Made by a program: the position numbers and the translations under genes. A stretch of DNA of 64,000 nt from Bacillota bacterium. Its GTDB lineage: Bacteria > Bacillota > Clostridia > Christensenellales > CAG-917. Position 1 is the stretch's first letter. Each line of letters opens with the position of its first letter. Below, one piece after another: positions 6,604-10,520 of the stretch. The stretch is taken from positions 83,914 to 147,913 of the forward strand of contig JAMPEA010000001.1 of NCBI GenBank assembly GCA_023665365.1, read 5' to 3'. Under the pieces are notes generated by a model that did no database searches, had not been told where the DNA came from, and saw only the letters and a program-made list of their open reading frames with translations.

Positions 6604-7377
6604 TCAGTCGTTTTGTTCGTCGATATTCTTTTCGTCGGACGCGCGCTTCACTTCCTTATTGGATTTCTTTTGCAAACTATCCTTTTTGCGGATTTTGCGC
6701 TCGTCCCTATTGAATATCGACACTATGCGAGCTACGAACATAACGAAATCTTTGGAGTTGTTTATGGCGATATTTTTCATAAACGCCTTGCCGCCTATCG
6801 TGACTGCGGATACCACTGCCGAGATGATGATTGTAAGCCACCTTTGCCACTCATCGCCGAGCGAAATTGCGATTTTGACAACGACCGCGGCAGAGCACGC
6901 ACCCGATATGATGCCGAAAATATCGCCGATTACGTCGTTACAGATACTCGACACAGTGCCGCTGTTTCGCACAAGCCAAAGCGCGGTCTTTGCGCCGTGT
7001 ACCTTTCTCGACGCCATAGAAGCAATGGGCGCAATATCGCATGAAGTCACCGCCACGCCGATGGAGTCGAAAAGTATACTGGCGAGTATCAAAAACGCGA
7101 GCAGCAATATGATAATCACTATCTGCTCGGCAGAAGCCGTAAGCTCGCTTAAAAAACTGAAAAAGCCCGCCAATACGAACGAAATGACGGATGCTTTGAG
7201 CCACCAAATATTGCGTTTTTTCTTTACCTTTTTGCGCTTGCCGTCAGCCGACTCGGAAGTTTTGGCTATTTCCTTGTCAAGTGGTTGCGCAGACTGAGCC
7301 GACACGCGTTCCGGCACAGCGGGCGTGTTGTCTGAATCGTCTTGAACGCTTAAATCTTTATCGTTTAAAGTATCCAA
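6604..7377 (-). CDS. Four-TM membrane protein with basic N- and C-terminal tails; candidate OapA-like partner of the upstream large ncRNA
   Basis: 257 aa with a TTG start (AAGGAG 4 nt upstream). Four hydrophobic helices, a KRKKVKKKR patch before TM1, an NDVIGDIFG (DxxxD) motif in TM3 and a lysine/arginine-rich C-terminal tail. It lies directly upstream of tlyA-nadK-argR-recN. Confidence 0.6.
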   Translation of the reverse strand: MDTLNDKDLSVQDDSDNTPAVPERVSAQSAQPLDKEIAKTSESADGKRKKVKKKRNIWWLKASVISFVLAGFFSFLSELTASAEQIVIIILLLAFLILASILFDSIGVAVTSCDIAPIASMASRKVHGAKTALWLVRNSGTVSSICNDVIGDIFGIISGACSAAVVVKIAISLGDEWQRWLTIIISAVVSAVTIGGKAFMKNIAINNSKDFVMFVARIVSIFNRDERKIRKKDSLQKKSNKEVKRASDEKNIDEQND

Positions 7378-7442
7378 AATGCTCCTTGTAATCTATATTA
7401 TGTAGCCTAATGCTAACGTATGCTCCAATAAATATATCCGCC

Positions 7443-7787
7443 CAAGCAAAAGATTTTGCGAATGTTGCGGGAGTTGCTATGTCGGCAAAAGTGAACAGCA
7501 AAAATCTTTTGCGCAGTAGGACAAGGAAGCCTCACCCTACACTTGTTTTGATTTTCAAGCGCCGCAGGCGCGTCACCAAGCAAAAGATTTTGCGAACGCA
7601 GCGGGAGTTGCTACGTCAGTAAAAGTGAACAGCAAAAATCTTTTGCGCGGTAGGACAAGGAAGTCTCGCCCTACACTTGTTTTGATTTTCAAGCGCCGTA
7701 GGCGCGTCACCAAGCAAAAAATTTTGCGAACGTTGCGGGAGTTGCTATGTCAGCAAAAGTGAACAGCAAAAATCTTTTGCGCGGTAG
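7443..7787. repeat. Tandem 134 bp repeat, about 2.6 copies, rich in GCAAAA-N2/3-TTTTGC palindromes
   Basis: Units start at 7443, 7577 and 7711 (caagcaaaagattttgcgaa...). Copies differ at a few positions. No credible ORF is present. Confidence 0.95.
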
Positions 7788-7789
7788 AT

Positions 7790-8440
7790 GCAACAAAATC
7801 AAGTCACGGCTTTGGCAAAGCAAAATTTTTTTGCTTTGTCGTGCCGTTTACGCTGATTTTGTTGCGAGGTGGCAACAACTTGGGTAAACCTTGCGTCTTA
7901 GGTTCGGTAGGATTTCCCTGTGCGAAAACTTGCCGTCGCCGTGCAAGACGTTTCCGATTACTTCGCACATTCTTGCGAAAACCGAATCGCCACTTAGTAC
8001 ACACTATAATCCCCAAGTTGTTACGCGAACGAACAGTCTAGAAGATTTCCTTGGCAGATTCCCTCCGACCTTATCTTTTTTTGCAAAGCGGATTTCGATG
8101 AGCAATCGCCGATGCGTATTGGCCATACGGCAAGAGCGTGAATCTCAAATCCCTCCGCCTCACTCAAAGCAGGCTACACTGTACACAGCACGTAAGCACC
8201 GCATAAACAGGTTTCACCCCAGTCAGTAGAGGATTTGCGCCTCTACCGAGTTGGGTCTCCACGGCAGTTGGGTCGTGATTTGTATGCCATTACAAGTCGC
8301 CCAAAAACCTTAACTCCCAGCAACAGCCCCGATTTGGGCAAAAGAAGCCATCACCAGAAACTTCATCGATATGCCCTTCGACGATATTTTACCCCCGTCT
8401 CCGGCACGGCGGAATCTGACTAGAATACTGCGCCACCATT
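7790..8440 (-). ncRNA. Large (about 650 nt) structured non-coding RNA, OLE-like by size and gene context
   Basis: No long ORF in any frame. A consensus promoter sits just upstream. Long-range complementary segments: GGUGGC (8437..8432) with GCCACC (7873..7868), and an 11 bp pair at 8022..8012 with 7884..7874. Local hairpins include 8226..8246. A roughly 75 nt 3' rod spans 7790..7865 (12 bp outer stem plus 10 bp inner stem). The context (RNA, 4-TM protein, tlyA-nadK-argR-recN) matches what I recall for OLE RNA loci. Confidence 0.6.
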
Positions 8441-8446
8441 TATATT

Positions 8447-8474
8447 ATTATATCAATACTTTAAAATATGTCAA
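8447..8474 (-). promoter_or_regulatory. Consensus sigma-A promoter (TTGACA-16-TGaTATAAT) driving the large ncRNA
   Basis: -35 TTGACA at 8474..8469 and extended -10 TGATATAAT ending at 8447. It lies directly after the recG stop. The predicted start is near 8440. Confidence 0.7.
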
Positions 8475-8489
8475 CCGATAAGATTTTAA

Positions 8490-10520
8490 TCAACTGTTTA
8501 AAGTGACCTTTTTAAGCTCGCCTAAAAACGCATCCACGCGCGATTTTGAGCGTCGCGTCAATGCCGCAAGTTCTTCAAGAGTGAGATTTGAAAGCCTTTC
8601 GTCGGCATATTTTTTTGCGTCGGATAAAATTTCCGCCGACATTTTAAGCCCGAAAATCGGCGTAACGGAGCCGCCGCTTTGGCGCGTCCCCATAAAATCG
8701 CCCGCTCCTCGCATAGCAAAATCCGCCTCGGCAAGATACTGACCGTCGTTGTGCGCACAAAAGGTAGAAAGTCTGTCCTGCGCCTTATCGCTCGTCCCGT
8801 TTGAATGTACGTAGCAATGCGCCTCCGAGCCGTCCCTCCCTACGCGCCCGCGCAACTGATGCAGAGATGCCAACCCGAATCTGTCCGCTCCGAGTATAAA
8901 AATTTCGCTTGCAGAAGTATCTATGCCCACCTCTACGACCGTCGTTGCAACGAGCACTTGCGCTTTTCCGCTTGCAAACTCTCGCATAGCAAGCTCTTTT
9001 TCCGCATCGCTCATCTTTCCGTGCAGAATTCGTAAATCTAACCCATCGAATTTATTCTTATAATCTCGCATAAAGCTCTCAATGGACATTATGTCAAAAC
9101 CCTCTGCATCTACGATAGACGGACAAACTATAAAGGCTTGTTTGCCGCGTTTGCAAGCGGAGAGTATATGTTCTACGCCCTCGTCTATGCTATGCACTAT
9201 GCTTGTCTGCACGTTGGTCTTTGCATCCTCGCGCTTTTGTATGTATGAAATGCTTATGTCGTCGTAGAAAGTAAGCGCCATAGACCGAGGGATAGGCGTT
9301 GCGGTAAGCGAAAGCACGTCAACCGCGCCTTTACTTTCCAATAGACGACGTTCGTTCACTCCGAATTTATGCTGTTCATCGATGACGGCGAGCGAAAGAT
9401 TTTTGTAAGCCACGTCCTGCGAAATCAACGACTGCGTGCCGATTATACAGGATATTTTGCCCTCTTTGAGGTTTTGCAAAACGTCGCGGCGTTCGATTTC
9501 ACTGATAGACGAAGTAACCAATGCACAGTTTATGCCGAATTTATCCGCAATGCTCTTGAACTTTGAAAAGTGTTGCCTCGCAAGTATTTCCGTCGGCGCC
9601 ATAAGCGCGCACTGCTTTTTGCCAAGCGCGCTTGCAACCATAGCAAAGAAGGCAACCGCAGTCTTTCCGCTTCCGACGTCGCCGCTAACTATGCGCGACA
9701 TATAATTTTTTGAGCGCATATCGCTAAGGATTTCGTCAAATGCCTTAATTTGCGAGGGCGTAGGCACAAAATCAAGCGCATTTATAAACTCATCTATTCT
9801 AAAATTTGTCAAATTATATAATACTTTACGCGATTTTTCATCGGATTTACGAAGTTTTCGATACATTGAAAGCACGATAGCGAGGTCAAGCGACGCAAGC
9901 TCCGCCATAGCAAAAGACGCTTCATCTACACTTTTGGGATTATGTAAGCGCAAAAAGATATTCGTCATATCCTCGTTGACCGCCGCAAGTCTGCCCTCGT
10001 ATTTAGTCAACTTGATTTCATCAAGCGCATTCTGCATTATGTTTTTGAATGTGTTTTGCCCTATTATTCCCCTAAGCGGATAAACGGTATATATGTCTTT
10101 CAACTTTGAAATTTTGTTTAATCTTTCAAGTTGCGGGTTTACTACGTTAAACGCGCTGTCGTCTTTTGAAAGTCTGCCGAACAGTCTGTATTCGTCGCCG
10201 AGCTTAAACGTATCGTGAAGAAAAGGCATGTTATAAAACGTTGCCTTAAAATAAATGCGTTTATCCCCCGCAAGATTATCCGAAAAGCTCACGCTGAAAG
10301 AGCGTTTTCCTCTTGGCGACACGGCGGACACCTTTTGCACTTTGCCTTCAAACAGATTTAGCGTTCCGCGTTCGGCATCGATTACGCTTATCGGAGATTG
10401 CAAATCAATATATTTTGTCGGCAAAAAAGAAAAAAGCTCAAAAACCGATTTAATATCAAGTTCTTGCAACTTTTTTATTGTGGCATCGCCAACGCCTTTG
10501 ATTTGCGATAAAGTCAACAT
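8490..10520 (-). CDS. recG: ATP-dependent DNA helicase RecG
   Basis: 676 aa with GDVGSGKT, DEQHKFGV and QLRGRVGR motifs. Confidence 0.95.
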   Translation of the reverse strand: MLTLSQIKGVGDATIKKLQELDIKSVFELFSFLPTKYIDLQSPISVIDAERGTLNLFEGKVQKVSAVSPRGKRSFSVSFSDNLAGDKRIYFKATFYNMPFLHDTFKLGDEYRLFGRLSKDDSAFNVVNPQLERLNKISKLKDIYTVYPLRGIIGQNTFKNIMQNALDEIKLTKYEGRLAAVNEDMTNIFLRLHNPKSVDEASFAMAELASLDLAIVLSMYRKLRKSDEKSRKVLYNLTNFRIDEFINALDFVPTPSQIKAFDEILSDMRSKNYMSRIVSGDVGSGKTAVAFFAMVASALGKKQCALMAPTEILARQHFSKFKSIADKFGINCALVTSSISEIERRDVLQNLKEGKISCIIGTQSLISQDVAYKNLSLAVIDEQHKFGVNERRLLESKGAVDVLSLTATPIPRSMALTFYDDISISYIQKREDAKTNVQTSIVHSIDEGVEHILSACKRGKQAFIVCPSIVDAEGFDIMSIESFMRDYKNKFDGLDLRILHGKMSDAEKELAMREFASGKAQVLVATTVVEVGIDTSASEIFILGADRFGLASLHQLRGRVGRDGSEAHCYVHSNGTSDKAQDRLSTFCAHNDGQYLAEADFAMRGAGDFMGTRQSGGSVTPIFGLKMSAEILSDAKKYADERLSNLTLEELAALTRRSKSRVDAFLGELKKVTLNS

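Follow-up and report, generated by a model that had tools for sequence, protein, structure and literature searches.

Two described kinds of repeat come closest to the element considered here. REPIN/BIME elements (Bertels and Rainey 2011, PMC3116915; Di Nocera et al. 2013, PMC3733652) are extragenic hairpins of ~60-110 nt with inverted arms and frequent compensatory changes, which lie mostly downstream of genes, reach tens of copies, fall into lineage-specific sequence types and persist vertically. Their ordered clusters are tandem near-identical doublets that include flanking DNA, REP clusters being reiterated in tandem together with that DNA (PMC3733652). BOX and SPRITE repeats of Streptococcus pneumoniae (Croucher et al. 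2011, PMC3049150) were judged parasitic, yet likely to influence co-transcribed genes via secondary structure, and SPRITE is terminator-like at gene ends. Against this background we consider a 134-bp tandem array between the gene for OLE RNA and oapA, located in a stretch of 64,000 nucleotides (the window; contig C11, positions 83914-147913) from a Christensenellales genome of 1.59 Mb (58 contigs, 99.5% complete). An array beside a stable-RNA gene is familiar from Escherichia coli, where the 3' end of rnpB is directly followed by a tandem array of ~100-bp structured units that repeat the RNA gene's own end. We consider it likely that the array next to OLE is a local tandem amplification of a dispersed, genus-wide, non-coding mosaic repeat that forms hairpins, and that it has no OLE-specific role.

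The repeat is a composite in which, in the sense direction of the upstream gene, a long rod hairpin sits on the gene's 3' end, followed by a long inverted repeat, module A, and then by a GC-rich mini-hairpin, Z. By analogy, REPIN/BIME clusters are the closest known kind, and module A resembles them in each of the respects listed above, but no cognate RAYT/Y1 transposase was found. As regards the conserved unpaired GTAG tag of REPINs, module A has a nearly invariant GCGCGG-TAG on one arm only, the other end being CCAAGC (GCTTGG-TG on the opposite strand). It differs from REPINs in that these ends are consistently unequal, in that its arms are A/T-rich instead of GC-rich REP palindromes, and in that it is always fused to a gene-end rod in fixed sense orientation. 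The host also differs, being a Clostridia genus; Firmicutes and Clostridia are not mentioned in the text of the 2013 survey (PMC3733652). With BOX/SPRITE the composite shares a Firmicute host, a modular mosaic of hairpins and restriction to one species group, but there is no sequence relation. The composite has its own module set (rod, A, Z and a GGGGTCCCC hairpin), the far arm of its rod mirrors the host flank, and the rod at the OLE locus has an A/T-rich tip and no U-tract. The GC-rich hairpin plus U-tract of a SPRITE-like or intrinsic terminator was not found at the OLE locus. Unlike the E. coli rnpB repeats, the units here are unrelated to OLE and are members of a dispersed family.

The array between OLE and oapA

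A sequence-only reading of the window had placed about 2.6 copies of a 134-bp unit between a large non-coding RNA and the gene for a membrane protein. Tandem Repeats Finder recovers this as a single tandem array at 7442-7787 (period 134, 2.6 copies, 92% matches, score 615). The RNA is OLE, as that reading had considered possible, with a full-length match to Rfam RF01071 on the minus strand. The gene is oapA, identified by a CNNM/DUF21 match and by a product (6604-7377) that is 60-83% identical to OapA relatives adjoining OLE in other genomes. Listed in the sense of OLE, and with scores from R1, our covariance model of module A, the features are as follows.

8447..8474, minus strand: OLE promoter, TTGACA, 16-nt spacer, TG-TATAAT (TGnTATAAT), 12/12 consensus matches in a simple promoter scan
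7853..8452, minus strand: OLE RNA gene, Rfam RF01071, 421.9 bits, full length 1-616
7790..7865, minus strand: rod hairpin, first module of the insertion, outer arms 7854-7865 and 7790-7801
7710..7787, minus strand: module A copy 3 (partial third unit; first copy in OLE sense), R1 74.3 bits; read on the plus strand, an inverted-arm element CCAAGCAAAA..TTTTGC ... GCAAAAATCTTTTGCGCGG-TAG
7654..7709, minus strand: inter-A segment of unit 2, with a CTTG-TTTTGATTTT-CAAG remnant resembling a rod arm; unit 2 hairpins GTAGG..CCTAC at 7650-7674 and mini-hairpin Z, GCGCC-GTA-GGCGC, at 7693-7705
7576..7653, minus strand: module A copy 2, R1 77.6 bits
7520..7575, minus strand: inter-A segment of unit 1; GTAGG..CCTAC at 7516-7540 and mini-hairpin Z, GCGCC-GCA-GGCGC, at 7559-7571
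7442..7519, minus strand: module A copy 1, closest to oapA, R1 69.9 bits
7378..7441, minus strand: non-repeated oapA leader, ribosome-binding site AAGGAG at 7382-7387 (+)
6604..7377, minus strand: oapA, 257 aa, TTG start, intact frame, CNNM/DUF21 match

The motif GCAAAA-N2/3-TTTTGC has seven matches in the window, all within 7446-7834, where shuffled sequence gives a chance expectation of 0.07 and none of 100 shuffles reaches seven. The seven palindromes in ~400 bp reported earlier are thus real. Their listed positions also hold, except that the copy at 7714 is GCAAAAAATTTTGC and not GCAAAAGATTTTGC, one base having been misread. The GCGCC-GYA-GGCGC and GTAGG..CCTAC hairpins described for the units are present as well.

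Between units 1 and 2, 10 of 134 positions are different. The long inverted arms are unaffected; module A has six of the differences, the GTAG tail one, the loop of the spacer hairpin two and the loop of the mini-hairpin one. The earlier remark that differences between copies fall largely in loops is therefore roughly right. The array units are 93% identical to each other, whereas no other copy in the genome exceeds 82% identity to them, which indicates growth of the array by local duplication rather than through repeated insertions from other loci.

A repeat dispersed behind genes

The sequence-only reading had named both a locus-specific element and a dispersed element of the REP or miniature inverted-repeat transposable element (MITE) type, and had said beforehand that copies at many unrelated loci would speak against the former. 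A genome-wide search places the palindrome-pair module at ~35 unrelated loci, so the array is not locus-specific, and the dispersed alternative is borne out. The palindrome motif itself has 51 matches at 33 loci in the genome, versus three for a reversed-pattern control. Module A has ~37 copies by nhmmer and covariance model, all in gaps between long open reading frames (ORFs). Repeats with at least three copies make up 285 regions and 75 kb (4.7% of the genome), and nearly all contigs break off within such a repeat.

Neighbours of the module A copies were taken from a tiling of longest ORFs, which includes some false small ORFs inside repeats, and from ARAGORN. At no fewer than 21 loci, module A follows a coding sequence, a tRNA gene or OLE itself in sense, lying 56-110 nt past the stop or 3' end with a rod between. 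Fourteen of the copies placed at this distance in sense follow the stop codon of a protein gene. Five stand 76-84 nt behind a tRNA in sense (Leu, Gly, Leu, Gln, Pro), one is 241 nt behind another tRNA-Pro, and a further copy follows the tmRNA region (C54:82171). The tRNA-linked composites of rod and module A are at C3:6200, C11:154823, C15:292, C24:9506, C24:10267 and C44:25928. Placement is unclear or opposite in a handful of cases only. As a separate observation, stable-RNA 3' ends look over-represented as targets (7-8 of ~33 loci, versus 47 tRNA/tmRNA genes in the genome).

The interval between gene end and module A always holds a rod. The near arm of the rod starts at the stop codon or CCA end, or right next to it (as in GAA-TAA-AATCGGC...). 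The far arm closes with CTTGATTTT and 4-6 locus-specific bases that mirror the near arm; 2-5 nt follow, and then the CTACCGC of module A. Sense rods anchored on a stop codon or RNA end, with a mirrored far arm, were identified on C1, C5, C16, C22, C28, C44 and C58, at the tRNA loci and at OLE. Those behind tRNA genes enclose the tRNA's own classical terminator.

Module Z is a GC mini-hairpin of the GCGCAC-GAAG-GTGCGC type, which in the array takes the form GCGCC-GYA-GGCGC. The flanks of module A also carry the GGGGTCCCC hairpin. At C57:3296-3412 a long-form module A is interrupted by a nested 35-nt GGGGTCCCC hairpin element. Genome-wide there are 102 occurrences of the GGGGTCCCC/GGGGACCCC motif, which makes this a second, independently spreading mini-repeat. 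A second tandem array (C44:112325-112584; L042:827-1081) has a period of 174 and contains two copies of Z, long-form A and rod. This array stands directly behind the stop codon of a 1508-aa ORF.

Anatomy of module A

The two "palindromes" of each unit are the two arms of one long inverted repeat. On the plus strand of the window, module A reads CACCAAGCAAAAGATTTT(T)GC ... GCAAAAAT[C/G]TTTTGCGCGGTAG; in the sense of the upstream gene it reads CTACCGC-arm ... arm-TTGGTG, with two inverted arms around a conserved core. A short form of 62 nt accounts for ~26 copies, and a long form of 81 nt is found at ~10 loci, including the OLE array. The imperfect inverted arms, of ~18 bp, are terminal inverted repeats, a feature shared with MITEs.

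Pairing between the arms was evaluated in two alignments. A1 comprises 13 long-form copies from this genome and one sister species; A2 comprises 31 distinct copies from ~25 species and was fitted to the model, which favours structure, but its controls are still far apart. On A1, RNAalifold independently predicts a long-range helix that joins the 5' and the 3' "palindrome". This helix has 95.1% of its cells paired and 8 compensatory pairs out of 16, with a covariation score of 0.322 versus 0.115 for shuffled alignments (0/500 shuffles reach 0.322). Shifting the 3' partner by 1-3 columns leaves just 36-46% of cells paired. A model of two local palindromes gives 83% paired cells and one compensatory pair, and its first helix is only 77% paired. 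On A2 the long-range helix is 94.9% paired, with 10 of 16 pairs compensatory (71 cells) and a score of 0.397 versus 0.140 shuffled. Across the ~25 species the motifs CCAAGCA, GCGAAAY, TGATAGC and TGCGCGG-TAG are nearly invariant.

The covariation bears directly on the suggestion, made in the sequence-only reading, that the palindromes are an array of sites for a dimeric protein. Seven near-identical palindromes of 14-15 bp within 400 bp would suit operators for a dimeric DNA-binding regulator of oapA or OLE. However, the arms of the sister species (for example ACAAATCATTGCGC / GCGCATAATGGTTTGT) are not palindromic in themselves, covariation joins arm to arm and not the halves of a palindrome, the local-helix model is without covariation, and the motif lies at 33 loci that are mostly behind genes, not in promoters. 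We therefore give operators next to no credence. The non-palindromic sister arms indicate that the GCAAAA..TTTTGC look is a by-product of arms with A and T runs in this species; the palindromes are a species-specific accident of A- and T-rich arms. What the alignments show as conserved is that the two arms pair with, or mirror, each other; local palindromes are not conserved.

Arm covariation alone is no proof of RNA structure. The terminal inverted repeats of a mobile element would be expected to covary just as much, and so would DNA quasi-palindromes under template-switch "correction" or ends bound by a shared enzyme. This is relevant to a further explanation, in which module A would be a structured non-coding RNA, or a protein-binding motif in single-stranded DNA or RNA, that functions at gene 3' ends, has many copies because many transcripts need it, and is not selfish DNA. 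Its junction motifs are invariant across ~25 species while the stem covaries, its orientation is fixed relative to the upstream gene, and the CCAA..GTAG strand shows some G-U pairs, all as a functional element might. But these G-U pairs sit on the strand antisense to the upstream gene, which would not be the transcribed strand. Other repeats insert into module A, as on C57, copy number ranges from 0 to 43 between species (none in 9 of 51), and orthologous sites are empty in sister species. Nor did loci with the typical long form match any Rfam family at E <=0.1. Taken with these points, a functional module at gene 3' ends is very improbable, and a selfish repeat is preferred.

Within the window, Rfam 15 matches pass the gathering score for just three RNAs: OLE, RNase P and one tRNA. 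A hammerhead-like reading of GAAA ... CUGAUAG was tried and rejected: its core is incompatible, with G8/A9 swapped and UUGAUAG in this genome, and there is no Rfam match.

Distribution in the genus

Model R1 detects 1-43 copies in 43 of 52 species of the genus, ~760 model matches in total, and has no match in 120 genomes that represent 85 other genera of the order, three of them from the same family. None of the other 51 species of the genus has the exact arm pattern of this one. The family is genus-wide, and its sequence types are species-specific. Clusters were also identified in relatives: three tandem copies of module A at C1:345837-346225 of G064, and two to five copies with periods of roughly 135-300 in G065, G066 and G068.

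One orthologous intergenic site could be compared in filled and empty form. It holds a rod, module A and two GGGGTCCCC hairpins in this genome, and a simple terminator only in G064 and G066. At the filled site, the far arm of the rod mirrors the native ...GAATAA stop region. In this one pair no direct target-site duplication is visible, and the flank is mirrored in inverted form. The intergenic site at 27.8 kb of C1 has an ortholog in the closest relative, G065 (L139; G065:C1:153373-153781), that contains three tandem ~85-nt units around a GCACGCGAAGCGTGC mini-hairpin; this gap is thus filled by different repeat modules in different species.

The insertion at the OLE locus

The conserved 3' end of OLE (...GTTGCCACC) stops at 7868, its final conserved bases being GCCACC. 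From there the locus reads GCCACC-TC-(GCAACAAAATCAGCG ... CTTGATTTTGTTGC)-AT-CTACCGCGC...; OLE occupies the position of the upstream gene, and the rod, given in parentheses, begins 2 nt past GCCACC. The outer arms of the rod are complementary at 12/12 positions (GCAACAAAATCA / TGATTTTGTTGC), and its tip hairpin contains the seventh GCAAAA..TTTTGC motif (7820-7834). The sequence-only reading had wrongly assigned both this seventh palindrome and the rod to OLE. In build, and in its CTTGATTTT-N-CTACCGC junction, the rod matches those at the 3' ends of protein and tRNA genes elsewhere. The match to the OLE covariance model (7853-8452) covers neither the array nor, apart from 13 nt, the rod. Because the rod lies almost wholly outside this match and is absent at 24 other OLE loci, it belongs to the insertion. 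Rod and array are not part of conserved OLE, and they are probably not a dedicated component of the OLE system.

OLE was found in 17 of 18 sampled genomes of the genus and in 7 of 12 of the order. At the loci read among these 24 relatives, a ribosome-binding site and oapA follow ~10-30 nt after GCCACC, which fits the report that ole is immediately adjacent to oapA (PMC11332333). For the gap comparison, the closest relatives were retrieved through OapA. Only this genome and three relatives have an enlarged gap (142-631 nt between OLE and oapA), so an insertion here is indeed unusual, as the sequence-only reading had remarked. The three relatives are as follows.

L045, gap 142 nt: rod-like hairpin only
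L050, gap 631 nt: A-like module in opposite orientation, plus rods
L048, gap 602 nt: own tandem array, period 188, 2.3 copies, 91% matches

The L048 array has the same rod-A-Z order as the array here, but with the species' own arm sequence. In a tree of OLE sequences the three relatives and this genome form a clade (support 100/98), and the sister of this clade, L046, has a 26-nt gap. The simplest reading of the tree, and most likely the correct one, is one insertion in the ancestor of the four species, followed by turnover; repeated independent insertion into the gap is a less likely reading. A single rod-A-Z composite would have landed directly behind the GCCACC of OLE in that ancestor. Later remodelling would have followed, and here the part comprising A, Z and a rod remnant would have been duplicated to 2.6 units.

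The OLE promoter is the only promoter-like site on the minus strand across 7250-8600, so it likely drives oapA too. No promoter-like site was found by simple scan between the OLE end and oapA, insert and leader included, and neither strand gave a terminator-like site within 7380-7870, so that transcription of oapA probably comes by read-through from the OLE promoter. The predicted fold of the 476-nt RNA segment between OLE and oapA (-156.8 kcal/mol, z = -5.1) comprises the rod, one hairpin for each of the three A copies, and further small hairpins. From these predictions, the array is probably transcribed passively, as a strongly folded 475-nt spacer of the OLE-oapA read-through transcript. 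Hairpins that extend the ncRNA when transcription reads through, another role offered in the sequence-only reading, would then be no more than a passive by-product. A contig from a mouse metatranscriptome (run X17, 1747 nt) represents a ~95%-identical relative in which OLE, a 133-nt spacer and oapA are joined. It aligns to the window at 7355-7386 and 7868-8427, and its spacer is of the L045 type. The contig is compatible with co-transcription but is not proof of it, as it may derive from DNA.

Several observations weigh against an amplified dispersed repeat that has no OLE-specific role. Movement was not observed, the filled-versus-empty comparison is one site, and no transposase or other mobilizer was identified for module A. 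The conserved junction motifs (GCGAAAY, TGATAGC, CCAAGCA, GCGCGG-TAG) and the fixed sense orientation also fit a functional RNA or protein-binding element. Contigs from two public DNA runs match the sequence exactly, yet end within the array; placement is thus sound, and the exact copy number stems from a short-read metagenome assembly with a break inside the array. The array was found in no public RNA run searched. Finally, the gap is still occupied in all four species of the clade, two of them with independently shaped arrays at one position, which raises the possibility of co-option.

If co-opted, the insert might provide RNase processing sites, stabilize the 3' end of OLE or the 5' end of oapA, or act as a partial terminator that sets the OLE:OapA ratio. 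Besides the persistent occupation of the gap, such a role could draw on the very stable predicted fold, on the lack of a promoter-like site before oapA, by which oapA must be read through the array, on the linkage of OLE, spacer and oapA in the RNA-library contig of the near relative, and on the argument of Croucher et al. that such repeats affect co-transcribed genes (PMC3049150). But the same modules lie behind at least 30 unrelated genes and tRNAs, and 24 other OLE loci work without an insert. The content of the spacer is wholly different among the four species (a rod only, a 134-bp array, a 188-bp array and an inverted module A). In addition, the array has no match in the public RNA runs searched, and the contig of the near relative could be of DNA origin. 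We regard co-option at this locus as distinctly unlikely, and favour a spacer without an OLE-specific role.

How the composite may spread

Overall, the element appears to behave as selfish DNA of the REPIN/BIME type, to judge from its occurrence in the 3' flanks of genes and stable RNAs, its vertical persistence and its tandem clusters that include flanks. The far arms of the rods mirror host sequence, native stop codons included, which suggests DNA copying by foldback or template switching. A more elaborate proposal is that rod-A-Z is an undescribed, transposase-less, self-copying palindromic element that homes to the 3' ends of genes and stable RNAs. The outer stem would then be a mirror-image copy of the host flank (an inverted target duplication), the core of module A (GCGAAAY ... 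TGATAGC, with the covarying 16-bp helix) would be recognized by a factor of the host or the element, and the insert would be kept in the four-species clade as its hairpins shape the OLE-oapA transcript. Taken as a whole, we consider this proposal unlikely.

For OLE biology, the comparison removes a false lead: rod and array are not an extension of OLE, and the conserved 3' end of the RNA is GCCACC. It also reveals a natural experiment, as in four species ole and oapA are 140-630 nt apart and separated by strongly folded RNA, so the tightness of their coupling can be tested. More broadly, the repeat is a genus-restricted, uncatalogued, REPIN-like structured family without RAYT, with ~760 model matches in 43 species of gut Clostridia that have genomes of 1.2-1.9 Mb. 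Its fusion to gene-end hairpins that mirror host sequence makes it a tractable case for palindromic spread without a dedicated transposase. For annotation, the family explains the breaks in the metagenome assembly at nearly every contig end. As an OLE curiosity the array is of modest interest; as part of a transposase-less palindromic repeat family with a mirrored-flank signature, it is moderately interesting.

Candidate mobilizing enzymes and other repeats

A Y1 transposase (RAYT/IS200, PF01797) had no match in this 99.5%-complete genome, and TnpB was not found in it. Y1 genes occur in 12 of 51 genomes of the genus. They are IS200-like, encode ~155-170 aa and have CCACCAGCT..AGCTGGTGG end hairpins. 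These hairpins are unrelated to module A, there is no module A nearby, and presence of the gene does not track module A, so together with its absence here Y1 was rejected as the mobilizer. Examples of the IS200-like genes are L165 (G059), L166 (G046) and L167 (G054), of which the G046 copy has an in-frame TGA.

The sole reverse transcriptase of the genome was also considered and set aside. This 364-aa RVT_1 protein (C38:1757-2851; L138:720-2367) is followed by a bAvd-like protein, a pairing that points to a diversity-generating retroelement. Tyrosine recombinases have five matches in the genome, none adjoining a repeat examined. Among the long repeats examined, in a check that was not exhaustive, there was no insertion sequence sharing the ends of module A. 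A phage or plasmid origin of the element was rejected, as blastn gave no match.

Three other candidates proved to be something else. Contigs C50 and C47, which are flanked by module A and might have represented an insertion sequence or composite element, encode ordinary genes (EF-P, RNase Y and a surface protein). A 3.2-kb ORF-free repeat on C55 is a CRISPR array (C55:1328-4542; L126:397-3535), with ~47 copies of the 36-nt repeat GTTTTCATTCCTTATTAAACTACATTGCTCTCAAAC at a period of 66. Twelve-copy repeats of at least 1 kb, examined as possible insertion sequences, represent a paralogous protein family. A paralogous family of large proteins (C3:10078-12525, C45:3942-5105 and C47:4188-5234) has ~10-12 partial copies in the genome, and the C-terminal 70 aa of these proteins match Pfam Ribosomal_L27A (E ~1e-9), an odd domain for proteins of this kind.

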